A stretch of DNA of 10,071 nucleotides, taken from the UHGV virus genome UHGV-1548554. The stretch is one strand, 5' to 3'. A program made the position numbers and the translations under genes. Shown piece after piece: positions 1,049-10,071 of this stretch (within the stretch, counting starts at the first letter, position 1; every line of letters begins with the position of its first letter). The notes beneath the pieces are model-generated. The model had not been told where the DNA came from. It did no database searches and saw only the letters and a list, made by a program, of their open reading frames with translations. The DNA comes from a virus.

Positions 1049-1741
1049 TTAAAACAACGAGCCAAGCAATCCGATACCAGCACCAATGCCAGCGCCCCAA
1101 GGTGTTGATGTTCCCAAAAGGCTGGCAAGACCTGCACCGGTAATCGCACCAGACGTGCCACCGCTAATTGCAGTCTGAAGACTTGATGGTTTATTGGCAT
1201 TAGCAGCGGCAAGTGCTGCGCTTTGCTGTGCAATGCTGCTCATGTTGTTGGCGTACGTCTGCCCGGCGTTTGCCTGACCTTGCAGCGCACCAAGCCCAAC
1301 GTTTGCCAGATTGTTGTAATTGCTCATCTGATTTGATAACCAAGACTGACCGAGTGTCGGCGCGATCGTAGCCAGTTGATTGCTTGTGGCTGTCGAACCA
1401 AGTCCACCCGTCGCCTCCGCAGCAGCAAGACTCTGGTAACGCGCCTGCCCTGCAAGGTCTTTATACTGCTGAGAGTTGTAATACTGATTAAGTGCCTGCC
1501 CCTGACCTTCTAAACTGGAAAGGTTCTGAAGCTGGTTAACATACTGCTCCGCAAGAGGCGTGAACGGAGCAAGGTTTTTCATGATCGTCTGCCACTGCTG
1601 ATTTTGCAGATCTGCAGCATACTTCTGAGCTTCTGCTGCATACTTTGCGCTTTTATCAGAACTGCCACCTTTCCCGCCTTTTTCAGGGCAATAAGGTTCC
1701 TCGCCGCGCAGTTTTCTGCCCAGCTTAAATGCATATAACAT
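1049..1741 (-). CDS. Ejection protein (P22 gp7-like internal virion protein)
   Basis: 230-aa ORF. The N-terminus MLYAFKLGRKLRGEEPYCPEKGGKGGSS closely matches the P22 gp7 N-terminus as I recall it. ATG start is preceded by GGGAGA 5 nt upstream. It has a Gly/Ala-rich hydrophobic C-terminal tail. Syntenic position between gp14-like and gp20-like genes. Confidence 0.8.
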   Translation of the reverse strand: MLYAFKLGRKLRGEEPYCPEKGGKGGSSDKSAKYAAEAQKYAADLQNQQWQTIMKNLAPFTPLAEQYVNQLQNLSSLEGQGQALNQYYNSQQYKDLAGQARYQSLAAAEATGGLGSTATSNQLATIAPTLGQSWLSNQMSNYNNLANVGLGALQGQANAGQTYANNMSSIAQQSAALAAANANKPSSLQTAISGGTSGAITGAGLASLLGTSTPWGAGIGAGIGLLGSLF

Positions 1742-1743
1742 GG

Positions 1744-2199
1744 CTATCTCCCGTGATTCAGGAAGTCGATTAGTTCTTCGCGTGTGGCGCTGTAAAAAGT
1801 CACGTCATCCACGCCTTTAAAGTATTTCTTGATGGTTCCGACACGCTTAAGGCCAATCATTGCGCAGTAAATCTGCCCGTGGCGGAATTTGCGTGCGGCG
1901 AACGATGTGACGCACTGAACGGTGGTGTTAGTCAGAATGTATCGCCAGAACGCCAGCCCGATTTCCTTGCTGAAGCCGCGAATCTCTGGCAGGTACATGG
2001 CGTGGCAATCGAATGTCAGCGGCTGAATCTCCTGATAGTAAACAATGCCGCCGAACTGCCCGTGCACGTTCACCTCAAAGTAACGGCAATCAGGTTTGTA
2101 GTCGTATCCATCACCGTTGTTGCTCCCGGCGATAATGTCAGGGTGATTTCCTACTGCTTCGATCAGGTCGATGTTTCGCGTTGGTTTGAACTGAATCAT
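1744..2199 (-). CDS. P22 gp14-like protein (ejection-protein assembly / DNA-stabilisation position); function assigned by synteny only
   Basis: 152-aa ORF in the track (1744..2202, starting at GTG). I prefer the ATG at 2199..2197, which overlaps the tail-needle stop as ATGA and suggests translational coupling. Sits between tail needle and gp7-like gene as in P22/Sf6. I do not recognise the sequence itself. Confidence 0.55.
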   Translation of the reverse strand: MIQFKPTRNIDLIEAVGNHPDIIAGSNNGDGYDYKPDCRYFEVNVHGQFGGIVYYQEIQPLTFDCHAMYLPEIRGFSKEIGLAFWRYILTNTTVQCVTSFAARKFRHGQIYCAMIGLKRVGTIKKYFKGVDDVTFYSATREELIDFLNHGR

Positions 2200-3047
2200 C
2201 ACTGCTCCGCAATGATTTTGATGGTTGTGGCAGTAAACGCCGCCCCATTTGACTGAATGGTTAACGTACTGCCATTTGTGGCAAGAAAGCCGTTTTTATC
2301 CACGCTGAAGAACGTAGCTAACAGGATGTTGTCGGTTGTTGTCGCCGAGTTGCGACTGCTTACCAGTGTGTCAGGAACAGAACCGGAAAATGTTAGCTGC
2401 ATTGACCTGTTGGCGGTTCCGCTGGGCCACGTCCCGACAATCGATAGCTTGAAGAACAGGGTTTTGTTCTCGTTGAACACAACCATCTTGTTGTTAACAG
2501 TGTCGAAGAATGGTGCCAACGTGCCGGATGACGGCGTGAGCGTTTTCAGCAGGCTAACAAGGTTGGTCGGCGCTGTCGGGATGGTTACAGATACGCCAGA
2601 GTAAACAACCTCTGACTTCTTGCGCGTGGTTGCATACTCCAGAGCATCAATGCGCGTTTCATGGTCTGAAAGCGTGTTTTGAATGGCGACAACTTCATCA
2701 GTCAGATACTCAATATCGTTTTCTGCTGTCGTTAATCGTGAATCAAGGCCGACTATCGCCGCTTCTGCGTTAGTGATCCTTGTTTCGTGGTCCTGTATCT
2801 TCGCTTCAGCCGATGCCAGTCGAATTTCGTGATCGACCAGAATCACATCCTGCTCATCGTTCCTGACCTGTGCATCATAAGCGCCCTGTCCGGCCTCGTT
2901 GGCCTTGTTAGCCACGTTGCCAACATCAGTACCCTGTGCGATAACGTACAGCAGATATGACTGCGAGAAGATATTGCGTGGAAGGACTGATGTATCGAGC
3001 CGCGTAGCCTGCACAATAACAGGGGTATTGAGATTCGAATCCGCCAT
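2199..3047 (-). CDS. Tail needle protein (P22 gp26 family) with extended C-terminal domain
   Basis: 282-aa ORF. The N-terminal ~60 aa ([43 protein letters not shown]...[11 protein letters not shown]) closely matches the P22 gp26 N-terminal domain as I recall it. It is followed by a heptad-phased segment with three DHE(I/T)R(L/I) motifs at residues 72, 86 and 128, then a ~135-aa S/T/N-rich C-terminal domain. The start ATG overlaps the gp10-like stop (TAATG). Confidence 0.85.
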
Positions 3048-4465
3048 TACTCAATCCTTATCTGGCAGCCAGACAAAGTGACAGGTGACTTCGTGATAAC
3101 GCGCAATTTGAAGCCAATGTTTTTCCTGATGCGCCCTACTTTCTTCCACAAAACGCGTTTGTCGTAAACGAACGGTTCATTCTGCTCAATCATCTGCTCA
3201 CGCCCGTAATTGATGCCGTCAGTGGTTGCAGAGAGGAACAGGCGGTCGGCGTACTGAGCTACGCCAGTGGATGATTCCACCTCCAGATCGAAGCATCTGG
3301 CGTTATCCGCTTTGAACAGTGGAGTAAACAACAGGTGTTCCTGTTGAAGCCCATACTGGCTGCTGATATCGAACTGCAATTTGCCGGTAACCGATTCCAG
3401 CTTATCGCCGCACGTTATCTGATTGCCTTCGTAAATGAAGTCGATAGCGCGGTACACATCGTCATACAAGCCAGTTTTCAACACACACCATTGCGGACCA
3501 TTGGCGCTTGAAGATGCGTCGTACACGAGGACGTGACGCGGAAGATGGATAATCAGCAATTCATGAGCATCAAACCGCAACGATTCCATCACGCCATCAG
3601 CCAGTTCATTAGCAGTGTAGGAACGGAGGATTTTCTCAATGCTCGCGCTGGCGATTGGTGACACCTGCCCGGAGCCGATGATGTATACAGACGGCGCACC
3701 TGTTGCCGGATTGCTGATGAACGCATAGGAATCAGCAAACGGCGTTTTGCAGTAAGTTCCGGCGATGCCTTTTTGCACCATCAGCGATGGCTGCGCGACA
3801 TACAAAGCGGCACCAACAGTGGTTGCACCAGTCAGGGAAAAATATTCAATCGTCGATGAACCAAAGCAGACGATGAAGTCTCGCCATGTTCCGATGCCGA
3901 TGATGCCGTCAGGCTGAGACTCTGCACGATATTGTGCGCTGTATCGGTCAGGGTGCGATTCGTCTTCAAGGTCAGTGATAAACCATGAATCAGTGCCGTC
4001 TTTTGACCACGCATAACGCCCACGTAAGCGCGTAATGTCGCGGACTGAACCTAACTCATACTGCGTGAATCCGCTGTCTGTAGGCCAGTTTGAGACGGTT
4101 TTAACCGTGCCATCATAACGATACTCGACCAGTTGACCATTAACGCCTACCGCCTGTGATGTCCGACCATGCGCCATTGATACGCGACCACTTCCGGCAA
4201 CATCACCGACTTCACTTTCTCCTTTGTACAGTTTGCCACCACACACGCGATAAACAGCACTCTGCGCCATGTTGTACTCGACGCCTCGAGATATACCGTT
4301 CACATCAGAACGTTTGGCAATGCCCGGGAATGAGCGAAGATATCCGCTGCTGTTCAGGATTTCTTTGGGTGTAGCCAGCATATTCACTGGGAGATAGTCG
4401 ATATAGTCGGCGTTTCGAAAGTCTTTGCCGACACCTTTCATAAGCGGAAGTTGCTGAATCGGCAT
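3047..4465 (-). CDS. Tail hub / head-completion protein (P22 gp10 family)
   Basis: 472-aa ORF. The N-terminus [49 protein letters not shown] is near-identical to P22 gp10 as I recall it, and the length matches. SD GGTGA lies 4 nt upstream of the ATG. Position between gp4-like and tail-needle genes. Confidence 0.9.
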
Positions 4466-4474
4466 TTATTCACC

Positions 4475-4936
4475 TCACGTACTCGGATCATCTTTCTCGA
4501 TGTAAAACCGATTCCACGTAAACGCGCTTTTGTTACCACTACCGCGAGGCATGTCATTTCGCCGCTCAAGTGGTGGTATTTTGGTTAAAGCGATACAGAT
4601 TGTTTGATATGCACTGTCAGCAGCGGTAAGGAGAGCGTCTGACGGCTGAATGACGTTATCCATGCACACTTGCACAGCGAGTTTCAAAGCGACGCCATCA
4701 TTTGCCCATGCAGGGATACCTGAATCATCGTCAGGTAACGGCATGATGCCGTTTTCTGTATCAGCAAACTGATACCCAAGCTCGATACCTTTCGCCTGCC
4801 ATGCTGCCATCATGTCTTCGAGGTCATTAATGGCATCTTCAATTGCCTGAGGGTCAGCATCTGTCAACGTGGCATTGGAATACAGCCCGGCTTTTCGTAA
4901 AGCCTTAAGAACGAGATCACCCTTCGTTTTCGCCAT
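4475..4936 (-). CDS. Head-to-tail adaptor protein (P22 gp4 family)
   Basis: 153-aa ORF starting MAKTKGDLVLKALRKAGLYSNATLTDADPQAIEDAINDLEDMMAAWQ, resembling the P22 gp4 N-terminus as I recall it. ATG at 4936 is preceded by GGAAG. Syntenic with P22 gene 4. Confidence 0.85.
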   Translation of the reverse strand: MAKTKGDLVLKALRKAGLYSNATLTDADPQAIEDAINDLEDMMAAWQAKGIELGYQFADTENGIMPLPDDDSGIPAWANDGVALKLAVQVCMDNVIQPSDALLTAADSAYQTICIALTKIPPLERRNDMPRGSGNKSAFTWNRFYIEKDDPST

Positions 4937-5105
4937 CTTCTTCCGCCTTAGCCACTTTTTGCTTCGTTGCGGTTTCTTCAGGAGTTTTTACCCAGCCTTT
5001 TTTCAGGTGAGATTTAACTTCTTCGTCATCAACAATGATGTAATCGACAGCAAACTGACCACAGGTGATCATGTTGCCCGGCTTATAGAGCATTGTTCGT
5101 GCCAT
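4917..5105 (-). CDS. Small hypothetical protein (62 aa) between coat and adaptor genes
   Basis: The track ORF 4917..5144 begins at a TTG inside the terminator hairpin. The internal ATG at 5105..5103 has a strong SD (GGGAGAAG) 6 nt upstream, immediately after the terminator U-tract, giving MARTMLYKPGNMITCGQFAVDYIIVDDEEVKSHLKKGWVKTPEETATKQKVAKAEEDGENEG. Its 3' end overlaps the gp4-like start by 20 nt. Sf6-type genomes carry a small ORF at this position, to my recollection. Confidence 0.5.
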   Translation of the reverse strand: MARTMLYKPGNMITCGQFAVDYIIVDDEEVKSHLKKGWVKTPEETATKQKVAKAEEDGENEG

Positions 5106-5116
5106 TGTCTTCTCCC

Positions 5117-5140
5117 AATAAAAATGGGGCCGAAGCCCCA
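5117..5140 (-). terminator. Rho-independent terminator immediately downstream of the coat gene
   Basis: On the minus-strand RNA, 6 nt after the coat TAA: U-GGGGC-UUCG-GCCCC-A (GC-rich 5-6 bp stem, UUCG tetraloop; + strand 5125..5140) followed directly by UUUUUAUU (+ strand 5117..5124). Confidence 0.6.
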
Positions 5141-5146
5141 CCAAAA

Positions 5147-6400
5147 TTACTGCCCGGCAATAACGATGCCCGTATATTCAGGAACAAGTACAGAGCAACC
5201 ATACAGAGTGGTGAAACGAGCAGTGGTTACGCCTTTGATGTGGTCGAAGGCGTAAGACATGATCAGCGTAGCGCCCTGCTCGGTGGTTGCTGTCATTACC
5301 TGTGGACCCTGACCAGTCGGGAACGCCAGTTTGCCGTACATCAGCTCAACAGAACCATCAGCCCAGAACAGGTTAGCAGGTGCTGCGTTCTTGTTGAGAA
5401 TGGTGATTGCTGCTGATGCTGCCGGTTTGGCATCGACGTTTGCATATGGACGACTCGCAACATCGGCATTTTCAACAGGGAGAATCTTTGGAGAGATTGT
5501 TACGGTAGTTCCGCTAACAGCCAGAACACGGAATACCTGCGGTTGCCCGGTGGTATCTTTTGTGATCTGGTGTACGGAATTCACACCGGCAATGGTGAAC
5601 GCATCACCAACCTGCAAGCCAGATGCAGATACCGTAATAGTCCCCTGTCGGTTATCAACTGGCATACCATTTGAATCTTTCGCTTCAACCTTGTGTTCAG
5701 GTTGGCCTGATACTGTCAAGGATTCAGCGCTTCCTTTCGGTAATCGACCAGAAATATCGGTCTTGTAGCTATCAAAGGAGGCAACCGGAGGGATCTGCGC
5801 TTTTTCGTATGCTGTCAGGGTTGCGCCCTGAGCGTAGGCACGGTGACCAAGCTCGCCAGCAAGGTCTTTGTAGTTGAAGGGGTTCCAGAAAGAGCGACGG
5901 TTGATACCCTGAGGTACACCAATCGCCGTCATGGTGGCATCAATATCTGCCGCACCATTCCACAAGGCAAGGCCCCGTGAGCCATTTTCTGAGGCAGGAA
6001 TTGCGACCACGTTAGTAGCACGCTGCGTGACCATGGAAATCAGGTCAGAGTCAATCTGTGCAGCAAGGCGCATACCTGCGGCGCGACCAGCTTCAGTTTT
6101 ATGTTCCGGGTCACGCATTTCACGCGCATCCAGAGTGTACAGAATGTTTTTCGGCTCCTTGAACACAGAAGGAACAAGGCGCTGAACCAGTGCTGTTGGC
6201 GTTTTGCTGCTGAGATCGAGGCCTTCCTCAATGTTCATGTGGTAATGCTGCGGACGATACAGAACATCACCTGCTCGCTGCATTGCTGTATCACCGGGAC
6301 GGAATTTTTTAGCGTTACGGGAAACTACGCAGGCGGCCTCAAAGCCTTCAACGTAGTTTTCGAACATGATTTCAAGGTCTTTTGCTAATTGGTTAGCCAT
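5147..6400 (-). CDS. Major capsid (coat) protein, P22 gp5 family
   Basis: 417-aa ORF. Length and several segments (e.g. ...MQRAGDVLY..., ...RPYANVDAKPAASAAITILNKNAAPANLFWADGSVEL...) resemble P22 coat protein (about 430 aa) as I recall it. ATG has GGAG 8 nt upstream. Located just after the scaffold gene and followed by a terminator, typical for a highly expressed capsid gene. Confidence 0.88.
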   Translation of the reverse strand: MANQLAKDLEIMFENYVEGFEAACVVSRNAKKFRPGDTAMQRAGDVLYRPQHYHMNIEEGLDLSSKTPTALVQRLVPSVFKEPKNILYTLDAREMRDPEHKTEAGRAAGMRLAAQIDSDLISMVTQRATNVVAIPASENGSRGLALWNGAADIDATMTAIGVPQGINRRSFWNPFNYKDLAGELGHRAYAQGATLTAYEKAQIPPVASFDSYKTDISGRLPKGSAESLTVSGQPEHKVEAKDSNGMPVDNRQGTITVSASGLQVGDAFTIAGVNSVHQITKDTTGQPQVFRVLAVSGTTVTISPKILPVENADVASRPYANVDAKPAASAAITILNKNAAPANLFWADGSVELMYGKLAFPTGQGPQVMTATTEQGATLIMSYAFDHIKGVTTARFTTLYGCSVLVPEYTGIVIAGQ

Positions 6401-6418: not shown

Positions 6419-7312
6419 TTATTTTTTTGCCTTTTTAGCGGCGAAATACGGCGTCCAGTCACCAGTTTCCAGCGCCTTGGCTTTCAGTTTGTCGAGGTTA
6501 TTGATTACTGCGCCGTTGCTCCCCTTAACTGTCGGGGTTGTGGCTGCCGTGGTTTTTGCTTTTGGCATGATTCTGGCCTTCGATTCGATACGTTCCAGCA
6601 GACGACCAATTGCTACGGGGTTGGTAGCTTCTGCCAGTTGCTTGCGCAGTTCAGCGTTGCGACCGAGTGCCAGAACAACGATTTCCGGCTTCTCTGACTC
6701 AAACAGGATCGCGTTTTGTGTCTCGATGGGGATTTCCTCGAGTACGGCCTGCTCAGCTTCCTGATAGCCAGGAACTTTGAGAGCCTTAACACGTTGCTGA
6801 TATTTGGATAATCGCTCTTGATAGGCAGCCTGAAGCTCCTGCTCCTTCTGCTTGCGAGCCATCTCCTGTTGCTGGTACTTGCCGTTATCCTCTGCCCACT
6901 TAGCCATGCGTTGCTGGTAGATTTCTTCATCGAAACCGATGTCCTCATCATCCAGTTTTGGCATTCGCGGTGGTTGAGTGATTACCGGCTGCTGCTCGAC
7001 GGGTTTCTGAGACTGACGCATCAGCTCTTTCAGCTCGCGGTCTTTCTCTTTAATCGTCTTGCGCAGGTGTTTTACCAGTCCATGCTCTGCGCCATCTTCG
7101 CTGGTTGGCGAATCCAGCTTTTCGTCACCAAAGTAGAATTCCTGTTCTGATTCGTCGTCATCAGTTTCAGTAGCTTCCTCTGCATCATTGCCGGAGGACT
7201 CGCTGCCATCTTCTGTTTCGACTTCTTCAGCCAGTTCGACATCATCAGGAATCTGCTCTGACGCGTCGGGTTCGATTTCAACTTCTGGTGTGTTTTCTGC
7301 CATCTGGTCCAT
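6419..7312 (-). CDS. Scaffolding protein (P22 gp8-like by position and composition)
   Basis: 297-aa ORF between portal and coat. The N-terminal ~75 aa are about 40% Asp/Glu, the middle is Q/E/K-rich and helical-looking, and the basic C-terminus (...NNLDKLKAKALETGDWTPYFAAKKAKK) resembles the coat-binding C-terminal region of P22 scaffold (KLKAK motif). Its stop is 18 nt before the coat start. Confidence 0.7.
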   Translation of the reverse strand: MDQMAENTPEVEIEPDASEQIPDDVELAEEVETEDGSESSGNDAEEATETDDDESEQEFYFGDEKLDSPTSEDGAEHGLVKHLRKTIKEKDRELKELMRQSQKPVEQQPVITQPPRMPKLDDEDIGFDEEIYQQRMAKWAEDNGKYQQQEMARKQKEQELQAAYQERLSKYQQRVKALKVPGYQEAEQAVLEEIPIETQNAILFESEKPEIVVLALGRNAELRKQLAEATNPVAIGRLLERIESKARIMPKAKTTAATTPTVKGSNGAVINNLDKLKAKALETGDWTPYFAAKKAKK

Positions 7313-7402: not shown

Positions 7403-7867
7403 TTACTGCTGTGGTTGTTGCTGAGTTGATTTTTGCAGGATGCTGCTGATGTCCATGCGCTGCGCATGGCCCTGTGCCTGACTTTTCAGGACAAGCTCTG
7501 CATCAGCACGGGCATTGTCTCCTTGCTGTTGCTGGAACTGTCCGAGCAGTTTCAGAGCCTCGCGGATATCAGATTTTTGCTGGCTATCGGCAGATGCGAG
7601 GATTTTCACAACATTTGCCGCTGCAACCTGAGCATCAGTCTGTGCCTGGAATGCTTTAACCTGAATGGCTGCCTGTTCGTTCTGCGCTTTCTGTAATTCA
7701 GCCTGACCAGCAAGAAGCTGACCTTGCGCTGCAACCATAGCCGGATCTGGCTGACTGGCCTGTTGTTGTTTCGCCTGTTCAACCATCTGCTGTTCTTCAG
7801 GCGTTCTCGGCTTGATAACGCCAGACAGAAGCAACTGATTGCGGTTGTATTCTTTCAGGTCGTCCAT
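7403..7867 (-). CDS. Portal protein, C-terminal helical 'barrel' region, in a different frame from the portal body (frameshift fragment)
   Basis: 154-aa ORF. ...KPRTPEEQQMVEQAKQQQASQPDPAMVAAQGQLLAGQAELQKAQ...NARADAELVLKSQAQGHAQRMDISSILQ matches the C-terminal region of the P22 portal (gp1) as I recall it. Its frame is offset by 1 nt from ORF 7797..9596. Confidence 0.75.
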   Translation of the reverse strand: MDDLKEYNRNQLLLSGVIKPRTPEEQQMVEQAKQQQASQPDPAMVAAQGQLLAGQAELQKAQNEQAAIQVKAFQAQTDAQVAAANVVKILASADSQQKSDIREALKLLGQFQQQQGDNARADAELVLKSQAQGHAQRMDISSILQKSTQQQPQQ

Positions 7868-9596
7868 CCCCGTCCATATTGTCGAGAATCATCGACGATA
7901 CAAGGTCGTGCTTCGGCGTTCCTGGTGGGATAAGTGCCAGCATGGAAAGTAACGACTTAACCGTTGCATCACGGCGAGTAGCGAACGACTGACCGACATC
8001 GACAGTCACTTCATAGTTACCCTGCGAAAGGTCGTTAAGCGCGATAACCTGCCCTGTCTGACGGTCAACCACTTCACCAGTCATCAGCGCCACGTCATCG
8101 CTGCCGTCCTCATTAACGATGCGCATTGGCGTATCGCTGCCATAGACCTCACGCGCCATAGAAAGCCACACGACGCCAGCACGGCGCATGGATTTAGCCA
8201 TGTTGTCCATGTAGATATAGGACTGCGTGTCCATCCGGTTAAAGATGCTATCAACGGTATCGGTAGCGACGTTGCTCGGCATGTTCTCAAGCTGCGACGC
8301 ACCTGTAATTTGCTGAATAGCCGTTCCGGTGTACTGCAATAGCCCGGCAAGAGCAGGAGGCATTTGTGTCGGAGGTGTCCAGCCAGCAACCTGAGCCTCT
8401 GAAATGACCGTTCCGTTTTTGTCCTTCTTGCTGGTCATGGGAAGAACTGCAGGTCTTTTCTTATTCCTCTCTGCCCAGTGATTCATTAATGGACCGGGAA
8501 TGAAATCAACATCCACGATAGGAATGCCATCACCGCCAGCCTGAGTAGCGTTATCTGCAATCATGGAAACCATCAGGTTCTCAAGACGCTGTGCATCCAT
8601 CGCTTTTGCTGCGTGGCCTTCGATTCGCTCCTGATTATCAACAAATGAACGACGCCCATATACCGGGATGAGAGGAATATGTTCACCCGGAATACGCTTC
8701 GGTTCTTCCAGCCATTCAGCGCCAGACAGAAGACCGCAATAAACGCGGCGCTTCTTCACCGTTCGCTCGCCAATCAGTTCGAATGCACCATCGGTCAGCT
8801 CGTCGACAATATCTTTGATTTGCTCTTCATCATAAATTGCCGTTTCTCCGCTAACAGGGTTGCGCCACGCCGTGAGCTTCACCTTCTCTATGCGAACTTC
8901 GTAGTAGCGTCCAACATAGATGGCATCAGGCGTTGACCAGTCATATTGAGTGCCAGTGTCATCACGAGAAAGACTTGCAGCGATGGAATCAGGGTATTCA
9001 GCTTCGAACGCTTTAGGCGTCATGGAGAACATTTCCATAGCCCACATAGCATCAGAGCGGTCATATTGCTTGCTGTCCTGATCGAAGAAGACGCATGTCG
9101 CTGGGTCGTAAACAGGAAGAAGGCTTATACGGCGTTGCTCGTTACTCGGATCCATTTCATCTTCGTAATCGGCACACATGCGGAAACAACCGAATCCGCC
9201 CGTTACAGCATCATCAAATGCGTTATCACACGCTTCGCCACCGGATGTTTCCTGATAGTCAGCGCGGAATTTGCCGTTCATCTTTTCGGCTAACGCTTCC
9301 GATGCCTTATCGTCCTTCGGCCTGAATTTAACGCTGATGCGATTCTGTCGATACTCGCCAATGATGCGATCACATTCACGGGCAATCTTATTCAGTTCAA
9401 AGCGCGGATAATGCTCAAACCTGCCTTCATCAAATGAGTAACCAGCGTTTGTGCTGCCTTCCCACTGTGCGCCGGACACCCGGACGAAACGTTGAGCCTC
9501 AATAATCTGCTCACGCATATCCTGCGTTGCTGACCAGGCATTATCAAAGTTGCACAGCACCTTGCGATGCCAGTCAGTCATCTTTTTTTCTGCCAT
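7797..9596 (-). CDS. Portal protein (P22 gp1 family), N-terminal 599-aa ORF; homology to portal ends ~22 codons before its stop
   Basis: Segments such as ...KKRRVYCGLLSG... and ...GEHIPLIPVYG... match conserved P22 portal motifs (RRRVY, GEHIPIVPVFG) as I recall them. ATG at 9596 lies 1 nt after the terminase stop (TGAtATG). Confidence 0.9.
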   Translation of the reverse strand: MAEKKMTDWHRKVLCNFDNAWSATQDMREQIIEAQRFVRVSGAQWEGSTNAGYSFDEGRFEHYPRFELNKIARECDRIIGEYRQNRISVKFRPKDDKASEALAEKMNGKFRADYQETSGGEACDNAFDDAVTGGFGCFRMCADYEDEMDPSNEQRRISLLPVYDPATCVFFDQDSKQYDRSDAMWAMEMFSMTPKAFEAEYPDSIAASLSRDDTGTQYDWSTPDAIYVGRYYEVRIEKVKLTAWRNPVSGETAIYDEEQIKDIVDELTDGAFELIGERTVKKRRVYCGLLSGAEWLEEPKRIPGEHIPLIPVYGRRSFVDNQERIEGHAAKAMDAQRLENLMVSMIADNATQAGGDGIPIVDVDFIPGPLMNHWAERNKKRPAVLPMTSKKDKNGTVISEAQVAGWTPPTQMPPALAGLLQYTGTAIQQITGASQLENMPSNVATDTVDSIFNRMDTQSYIYMDNMAKSMRRAGVVWLSMAREVYGSDTPMRIVNEDGSDDVALMTGEVVDRQTGQVIALNDLSQGNYEVTVDVGQSFATRRDATVKSLLSMLALIPPGTPKHDLVSSMILDNMDGDGRPERIQPQSVASVWRYQAENA

Positions 9597-9597
9597 A

Positions 9598-10071
9598 TCA
9601 ACCTACACCACAAGGAATTGAGTAACTGGAATAGTCGGGTTGCGCAGCCGACTCCGGGCAATGCATACACATCATCAGCGCATCAGCCAGGTTAGGAGAT
9701 GGAATACCGAGCTTCTGCTTCATTTCGACCTTAGTCATTAGCTCCAGCTTCCCGTTGTTATTGAATTTGCGCTGAATCTGCGTCAGTTCTGCAAACAGCT
9801 TCTCCAGCATCTTCTCGCCTATTGCTTCTTTGTCGAAACTCAGCATGTCGTCGGGGTCTGCATACTCACCGTGGACAACCGCCCGATATGTCAGATAAAG
9901 CCTGTCAGCCAGCGCGTAATAGAATTGCGCTCGCTTATTGCGGAACACATCACCAATAGTGCGAACGTTGTCGCCCTGTACGACTTCATCGGCCCATGCT
10001 CCGGCCTGATATGGTGCATCTTCATCGAATGGCGATTCGCTGCCCTTGAACATCGTGGCGGTGATTTTCTT
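9598..10071 (-). CDS. Terminase large subunit, C-terminal 157 codons (5' end beyond the right edge of the window)
   Basis: The reading frame is open from the window edge (rc of 10054..10071 = KKITAT, no stop) to TGA at 9600..9598. It sits immediately upstream of and co-directional with the portal gene, as in P22/Sf6. I do not recognise the sequence itself, so the call is by synteny. Confidence 0.72.
   Translation of the reverse strand, partial: KKITATMFKGSESPFDEDAPYQAGAWADEVVQGDNVRTIGDVFRNKRAQFYYALADRLYLTYRAVVHGEYADPDDMLSFDKEAIGEKMLEKLFAELTQIQRKFNNNGKLELMTKVEMKQKLGIPSPNLADALMMCMHCPESAAQPDYSSYSIPCGVG

Follow-up and report, generated by a model that had tools for sequence, protein, structure and literature searches.

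Phage P22 is a standard model of capsid assembly and of headful packaging, and in the middle of its morphogenetic operon there is a conserved gene to which no role has been assigned. This gene, orf69 (NC_002371 6135-6344; NP_059631), lies in the slot between the coat gene and gene 4, is preceded by an annotated stem-loop and overlaps the start of gene 4 by 17 nucleotides (nt). In Sf6 the same slot holds gene 6, annotated as similar to HkbT of HK620 (PHROG 3251), which encodes a protein of 61 amino acids (aa), also follows a post-coat terminator and overlaps the start of its adaptor gene, gene 7, by 26 nt. Here we describe the corresponding locus in a stretch of 10,071 nt of the virus genome UHGV-1548554 (the window), in which an open reading frame (ORF) of 62 aa is found on the minus strand at 4917..5105, between a coat gene and a gp4-type head-tail adaptor gene. 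A sequence-only reading of the same DNA had listed the position of this ORF, its Shine-Dalgarno sequence, a 20-nt overlap with the gp4-like start and an EEDGENEG end, all of which are present. It took the ORF for a genuine small gene, which was confirmed, and guessed at an assembly factor, which we judge to be reasonable; it was mistaken in stating that P22 has no gene here. Our comparisons make the small ORF the CUS-3-type ortholog of P22 orf69 (PHROG 1175), and we propose, with a probability of roughly 45%, that its product is a non-virion accessory of DNA packaging or head completion.

The gene itself is already known, since dozens of records annotate it and a PHROG exists for it, and the ORF as such is ordinary. 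The present analysis connects it to P22 orf69, shows how widespread the family is and how nearly obligate its place next to gp4, and contributes a domain model together with a testable hypothesis of a role like that of gpFI of phage lambda.

The small gene and its counterparts in P22-like phages

The small ORF runs from an ATG at 5105-5103 to a TGA at 4919-4917 (minus strand), and its translation is MARTMLYKPGNMITCGQFAVDYIIVDDEEVKSHLKKGWVKTPEETATKQKVAKAEEDGENEG. The Shine-Dalgarno sequence GGGAGAAG was read from the sequence at 5109..5116 (minus strand), with 6 nt between its GGAG core and the ATG. The program-made ORF list instead starts the ORF at a TTG at 5144, which would give a protein of 75 aa. 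Since this TTG sits inside the hairpin that follows the coat gene, and since the in-frame stretch upstream of the ATG is not conserved among relatives, some of which have a stop only a few codons upstream, the ATG at 5105 is the supported start.

A direct BLASTP comparison of the small ORF product with P22 orf69, whose sequence starts MKIAIYKPGGSIMVWGVMAQMKVIDSSELPEYVKDGWLDHP, gave an E value of 4e-7, with 26% identity over 42 residues, and the profile of the family, built from 93 sequences, matched P22 orf69 with an hhalign probability of 97.3% (E 2e-11). Moreover, both proteins match phrog_1175, the small ORF at E 9.2e-29 (residues 2-56) and orf69 at E 4.5e-31. Together with ECRS218_0017 of CUS-3 and gp06 of Sf101, P22 orf69 shares with the small ORF the PHROG, the N-terminal motif (xYKPG...VID..E....DGW..P), the slot between coat gene and gene 4, the overlap with the adaptor start and the preceding post-coat stem-loop. 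One difference was observed in the tail, where orf69 has a basic KPRKGRKPKA segment that is missing from the protein of the window. By these sequence comparisons, the small ORF is established as the CUS-3-type ortholog of P22 orf69.

The product of the small ORF is 100% identical to those of annotated genes in nine phage records, including Sf101, Huey, Kapi1 and JEP4, and 98% identical to that of the CUS-3 gene. Among the nucleotide sequences of the 41-codon core, ten distinct variants depart from that of the window at synonymous positions only, and the ratio of nonsynonymous to synonymous substitutions (dN/dS) is 0.12-0.19 for homologs with 68-88% amino-acid identity and unsaturated synonymous sites. 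By these measures the small ORF is a real late gene that encodes a protein and is subject to purifying selection. The sequence-only reading had also considered an unconserved ORF lying over a conserved antisense frame; we found that the ORF belongs to a conserved family, and that the antisense ORF of 128 aa at 4869..5255 (plus strand), which spans the small gene and the 3' end of the coat gene, has no family match and no Pfam match. A chance ORF or an antisense gene was therefore rejected on the grounds of dN/dS and homology, and the antisense ORF is best read as a shadow ORF.

As a separate observation, two alleles of residues 1-20 (5046..5105 in the window, minus strand) occur in E. coli prophages, namely MARTMLYKPGNMITCGQFAV and MSQIMLYKPGSMITCGPHSL, while residues 21-62 are identical in both (the window and loci L015, L027, L034, L059 and L087). 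This suggests a recombination junction within the small ORF.

A longer member of the family is found in ST64T, ST160 and BTP1, where Orf186 (PHROG 3769) has the same N-terminal domain (phrog_1175, E 2e-18), the same slot and an overlap with gene 4, and where the tail, KKPGPKPKAESDADKD, resembles those of the close relatives of the protein of the window. Orf186 differs in its length of 186 aa, as a WDGH domain of about 100 residues (PF25311, E 2e-40) is placed between the N-terminal domain and the KKPGPKPK tail. The analysis covered the ST160 gene, at 2501..3061 of its locus (L007), and the tblastn matches in ST64T, ST104 and BTP1 look alike. A literature search on the WDGH domain found nothing.

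The sequence-only reading had stated that Sf6-type genomes have a gene at this position. They do, in the form of gene 6, but it is not detectably related to the small ORF. Sf6 gp6 matches phrog_3251 and not phrog_1175, and its comparison with the family gave hhalign E values of 0.61 (single sequence) and 0.27 (profile against profile), with no significant N-terminal similarity, so that membership in the orf69 family is not demonstrable. The likeness is confined to slot and tail: gene 6 ends basic-then-acidic (KRGRKAADNGNSTDKG), and this KRGRK-then-acidic tail looks like those of the orf69 family. Sf6 gene 6 is either a non-homologous replacement or a relative that has diverged past detection. 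The slot is filled in all three P22-like types, by the orf69 family in the P22 type and the CUS-3 type and by another protein in the Sf6 type.

The breadth of the family was analyzed by a profile search of 1.84 billion representative proteins, in which 104 clusters (at 50% identity) reached E<1e-3; nearly all of them contain proteins 50-190 aa long that carry the domain N-terminally. A second search returned only proteins labelled "hypothetical protein", from E. coli, Citrobacter, Atlantibacter, Proteus, Morganella and Providencia. Further hosts are Ralstonia and a Flavobacteriales metagenome-assembled genome. In the Ralstonia phages Firinga and RSK1, homologs were located by tblastn directly upstream of the Ad3 adaptor gene, and a freshwater phage and a Logan contig share this position. 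We left out P0197, in which glycine/alanine-rich sequence appears to be fused to the N-terminal domain, since it is probably chimeric or derived by deletion.

Additionally, IMG/VR was scanned with a degenerate pattern for MLY-x13-D[YFW][IV][IV]V-x11-GW, which returned 120 stretches, every one of them encoding a true family member. Neighbouring genes in these loci were detected with hidden Markov models for gp4, coat and gp10 that were built from six known loci. In 50 of the 52 informative distinct proteins, the gp4 homolog starts between -62 and +66 nt from the end of the family ORF, and most of them have the end of a coat gene within 285 nt upstream of that ORF. The two exceptions, L024 and L093, have the gp4 homolog 2260 nt and 179 nt downstream, respectively. 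The mean pairwise distance of the small protein is 0.35, as compared with 0.31-0.33 for gp4, coat and gp10, and its distances track those of gp4 and gp10 slightly better than those of the coat protein (partial r 0.66 for gp4 given coat, 0.38 for coat given gp4). Judged from gene order and distances, the orf69 family is a stable part of P22-type head/neck modules and is almost always found immediately upstream of gp4, and the small gene behaves as a core gene of the module, not as a moron.

The coat gene and the family ORF lie about 220 nt apart in many environmental P22-like modules. In the two loci with called genes (L008 6822..7004 and L009 3233..3463) the interval contains a further small ORF (60-76 aa), which has no family match.

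Predicted domain, variable tail and junction with gene 4

The N-terminal domain of the small protein comprises codons 1-45 (4971..5105, minus strand) and shows the pattern MLYKxG...G...DYIIVD.eeV...L..GW..tPeE, for which a beta-hairpin, a strand and a helix are predicted. In the 93-sequence alignment G37 is invariant, and M5, L6, Y7, V25 and W38 are each kept in at least 90% of the sequences. A profile search and a structure prediction had been recommended in the sequence-only reading; the former led to the orf69 family, and the latter gave an N-terminal domain with a predicted local distance difference test (pLDDT) score of about 90 and no relative in the PDB. The AlphaFold2 (AF2) model that we used was obtained with the 93-sequence alignment and has a mean pLDDT of 82.5, with means of 88-94 for the 10-residue blocks of residues 1-40, 81 for residues 41-50, and 57 and then 46 along the tail; a run with an 8-sequence alignment reached only 51 and was unusable. 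The model places strands in residues 3-15, another strand in residues 18-26 and a helix in residues 27-35, followed by the conserved GW. Residues 3-15 probably form a hairpin that turns at the conserved PG.

When the model was compared with the PDB using Foldseek, 27 matches were obtained, none of them significant (best E 3.2), and a sequence-profile search of the PDB gave chance matches only. Foldseek against BFVD found uncharacterised phage proteins only. The small ORF has no Pfam match at E<=1, a Pfam scan of the 93 members and an NCBIfam scan yielded nothing useful, and PHROG 1175 carries no assigned function. The predicted N-terminal domain is thus a confident model without a known structural relative.

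The tail, comprising codons 46-62 and the stop (4917..4970, minus strand), is short and Lys/Glu-rich (TATKQKVAKAEEDGENEG), a minimal form of the charged tail that varies across the family. At this position the close enterobacterial relatives often have PEPEPE repeats, KKKPG(P/R)KPKA and an acidic end. Among the 93 representatives, a dense Lys/Arg cluster was observed in the tails of 63, an AT-hook-like motif (RGRP/RGRK/PGRP) in 16, and a C-terminal helix-loop-helix (PTRxELExKAxELGIKFDGRTSDxKL..IEEAL) likewise in 16.

The last codons of the small ORF have a second use. The overlap with the adaptor gene spans 20 nt (4917..4936, minus strand; gp4 ATG at 4936), the ribosome-binding region of gp4 lies within the KAEE codons of the small ORF, and gp4 draws both its ribosome-binding site and its first codons from the final six to ten codons of the small ORF. 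The conservation of the acidic end is partly due to this double use. The acidic tail noted by the sequence-only reading is accordingly present as a Lys/Glu tail, and is in part imposed by the overlapping signals of gp4. The same overlap (-20) with the gp4 start is found in the enterobacterial relatives. The overlap is likely a translational-coupling junction from the small ORF to gp4.

On its other side, the small ORF is separated from the stop codon of the coat gene by a terminator-like hairpin at 5117..5142 (minus strand), GGTGGGGC-TTCG-GCCCCATT, followed by TTTATT. It is the sole minus-strand terminator-like site within 4400-5600, and it is present in the minimum free energy fold of 5095-5160 (minus strand), a stretch of 66 nt whose z-score is modest (-1.83). 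The hairpin resembles the "t coat" stem-loops that are annotated after the coat genes of Sf6 (as a terminator) and P22 (as a stem_loop). No minus-strand promoter-like site was found in 4400-5600, and no terminator follows the small ORF, which runs into gp4.

Candidate function and rival explanations

In phage lambda, gpFI is a strong enhancer of packaging and forms a bridge between the capsid and the terminase-DNA complex (PMC13595911), and gpFI-like genes follow the capsid genes in other phages too (PMC4493119). In the former review, the table of packaging factors has no accessory factor entered under P22 (PMC13595911). The lambda gene order is E (capsid), FI, FII (head closure), and that of coat gene, small ORF and gp4 gene in the window is equivalent. 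The gpFI protein, studied by Popovic et al. in 2012, is reportedly small and made of two modules joined by a flexible linker. The order of the modules is reversed in the family described here, which has its globular domain at the N-terminus, and the protein of the window lacks the second module that gpFI has.

We propose that the small protein is an accessory factor, not an ordered component of the virion, which would act at the transition from DNA packaging to head completion. Its conserved 45-residue N-terminal domain would dock on a partner from the same module, with gp4 or the portal likelier than the coat protein, and in most lineages the flexible charged tail may tether DNA, the terminase-DNA complex or an acidic protein surface. 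The protein would in this way serve as a bridging chaperone that works like lambda gpFI. Since the tail in the window is a stripped-down Lys/Glu version, the essential part would have to reside in the N-terminal domain. Additionally, translation of the small ORF probably also brings ribosomes to the overlapping gp4 start, as a secondary role in cis. We consider the specifically FI-like mechanism, which is drawn by analogy, doubtful, and less likely than an accessory role as such. It is a similarly tentative idea, and one that we would not rate as likely, that P22-like podophages, P22 included, encode an unrecognised packaging or head-completion chaperone, the Orf69 family, in which a novel mini-fold docks on gp4, the portal or the coat protein, carries exchangeable DNA-tethering tails, and is an analog of gpFI with an independent origin.

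Several results weigh against an accessory role of this kind. The small ORF has no match to PF14000, and no Pfam match at all; the family profile aligned with gpFI at an hhalign probability of 1.4% (E 0.038); and nothing from gpFI, whose capsid-binding fold is available as PDB 2LSM, was among the 27 Foldseek matches. Membership of the small ORF in the gpFI family was consequently rejected, there being no match in sequence, profile or fold, and the analogy is one of gene position and overall architecture only. The proposed tethering by the tails meets with similar difficulties: 18 of the 93 representatives, the protein of the window included, have no basic cluster, hook or helix-loop-helix; the tail motifs stay below the curated thresholds of the Pfam DNA-binding families, with a single sub-threshold Rho_N match (E 0.0015) in one of the 93; and the profile of the helix-loop-helix tail has no relative in the PDB. 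A DNA-binding reading of the tails is thus at the level of patterns only. Literature searches on orf69, hkbT and virion proteomics found nothing relevant, the "orf69" matches being unrelated ORF69s. The co-inheritance of the small gene with gp4 may be mere linkage. P22 genetics is not known to have recovered a gene between genes 5 and 4. Head completion in vitro needs no more than purified gp4, gp10 and gp26. Because of these last two points, the role would probably be stimulatory and non-essential.

Within the family, the helix-loop-helix tails, which are present in about one sixth of its members, align weakly and in register with the N-terminal helical region of gpFI, TKDELIARLRSLGEQL (hhalign E 0.002, probability 13%). 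In lambda FI (1503..1901 of its locus, L130), the N-terminal region TKDELIARLRSLGEQLNRDVSLTGTKEELALRVAELKE has a sub-threshold SAP match (E 0.0018). We do not claim HeH/SAP membership for these tails, as there is only the weak alignment to the gpFI N-terminus and no PDB relative.

The proposal that the protein is not an ordered part of the virion is based on the Foldseek and profile searches, in which no deposited PDB chain resembles either the model in fold or the family profile in sequence. A minor virion, decoration or connector-associated protein, present in low copy or disordered, for example around the portal/gp4 junction or on the capsid, would agree with the position of the gene in a structural operon, between two virion genes and tied to gp4, and a protein of 7 kDa is easily missed on gels. 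In addition, the identical protein of Sf101 bears the label "virion structural protein" in RefSeq, on an unstated basis. This is the only such label, however, as all other records, RefSeq P22 included, call the protein "hypothetical", and PHROG 1175 is functionally unassigned. The orf69 product is not known to be on the long-established list of P22 virion proteins. On balance, we regard a virion protein as unlikely. The tails, with their common basic clusters, RGRP-type hooks and helix-loop-helix motifs, would also suit a regulator that binds DNA or RNA through an AT-hook-like or helix-loop-helix tail and so modulates transcription or translation, either of late phage genes or in the host; the gene also sits after a terminator-like hairpin. 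DNA binding cannot be the conserved core function, however, as the version in the window and 17 other representatives do without such tails, whose motifs fall short of the curated Pfam thresholds; and that the gene stays strictly next to gp4, in genomes that are mosaic elsewhere, speaks for the morphogenetic module. A regulator is for these reasons improbable.

The junction with gp4 raises the question whether the small ORF acts mainly in cis, as a leader that couples translation past the post-coat hairpin to the weakly signalled gp4 start, with a dispensable peptide. The strong Shine-Dalgarno sequence and the 20-nt overlap with the gp4 ATG speak for this, as does the fact that a tight overlap or abutment is near-universal in the family and recurs in the unrelated Sf6 gene 6; moreover, the codons for KAEEDGENEG are the very ones that double as ribosome-binding site and N-terminal coding sequence of gp4. 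A leader needs no conserved fold, however, whereas the 45-residue domain keeps near-invariant residues across bacterial classes, the dN/dS values and the AF2 confidence of about 90 contradict a sole function in cis, and the family has gained extra domains (the WDGH insert in Orf186 of ST64T and ST160, and the helix-loop-helix tails). Translational coupling is probably real but secondary, and a mere leader appears quite improbable. The sequence-only reading had further offered a lineage-variable insertion slot and a moron, and a moron, lysogenic-conversion or anti-defence gene would be consistent with a small ORF that has its own strong Shine-Dalgarno sequence and a terminator-like hairpin before it, in a slot that is taken by an unrelated protein in Sf6-type phages and by a family member with a WDGH insert in those of the ST64T type. 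Such a gene is hardly to be expected here, as the minus strand shows no promoter-like site upstream and the ORF runs into gp4 without a terminator, and as position and sequence are conserved across distant hosts with a divergence like that of a core structural gene; with the slot filled in all three P22-like types and synteny kept, the notion of a variable slot was abandoned.

If the accessory role like that of gpFI holds, packaging chaperones would be a recurrent solution with independent origins in head modules of the siphophage type and the podophage type, and Orf69 as a chaperone would fill the empty cell for P22 under "other required factors" in packaging tables. With its place in one broad family, the near-constant position of that family upstream of the adaptor gene and a divergence like that of core structural genes, an ignored "hypothetical protein" becomes a concrete and cheap target for knockout and interaction tests. 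Should the gene turn out to be dispensable, the annotation "conserved hypothetical, P22 orf69 family" would still be more useful than the present labels.

Genomic setting

The window represents a P22-type late operon, with all long ORFs on the minus strand, and it belongs to a CUS-3-type Lederbergvirus (P22-like), most likely an E. coli prophage, as judged from similarity to known phages. The 901 bases around the small ORF are 98-99% identical to CUS-3, Sf101, JEP4, Kapi1 and Huey, and the region of the small ORF is present in 428 of 5426 complete E. coli genomes, where the label in the listed records is "hypothetical protein".

In operon order, which runs from high to low coordinates, the first gene is a C-terminal fragment of the terminase large subunit (9598..10053), followed by a portal gene in two parts (7797..9596 and 7403..7867; P22_portal profile) and by the scaffold gene (6419..7312), which was assigned from its position, equal to that annotated in CUS-3, and has no significant Pfam match. 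The coat (major capsid) gene of the P22 gp5 type (5147..6400; PF11651 P22_CoatProtein, E 3.2e-74; phrog_283, E 3.6e-119) is directly upstream of the small ORF, and its counterpart in CUS-3 is annotated as "putative coat protein". Downstream of the small ORF are the head-tail adaptor gene of the P22 gp4 type (4475..4936; PF11650 P22_Tail-4, E 7e-41; phrog_637 "head-tail adaptor Ad3", E 5.7e-70), gp10 (3047..4465; PF11134), the tail needle gene (2199..3047; 282 aa; PF16532), a gene in the gp14 position (1744..2202; DUF2824) and gp7 (1049..1741). All of these genes are on the minus strand.

Two differences from CUS-3 were observed elsewhere in the operon. The portal gene is split within 7403..9596 (minus strand) into an ORF of 599 aa, which covers positions 2-539 of the P22_portal profile, and one of 154 aa, which covers positions 537-594. 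The cause is a deletion of 5 nt (GCGAA) between 7870 and 7871, relative to the intact portal gene of CUS-3 (2199 nt), and it reflects either a defective prophage or a sequencing error. The tail needle gene (minus strand) encodes a C-terminal knob of the Sf6 type (PF16532, E 9e-109), whereas the CUS-3 gene at the equivalent position has only 702 nt (233 aa); the longer needle is a mosaic difference within an otherwise CUS-3-like module.

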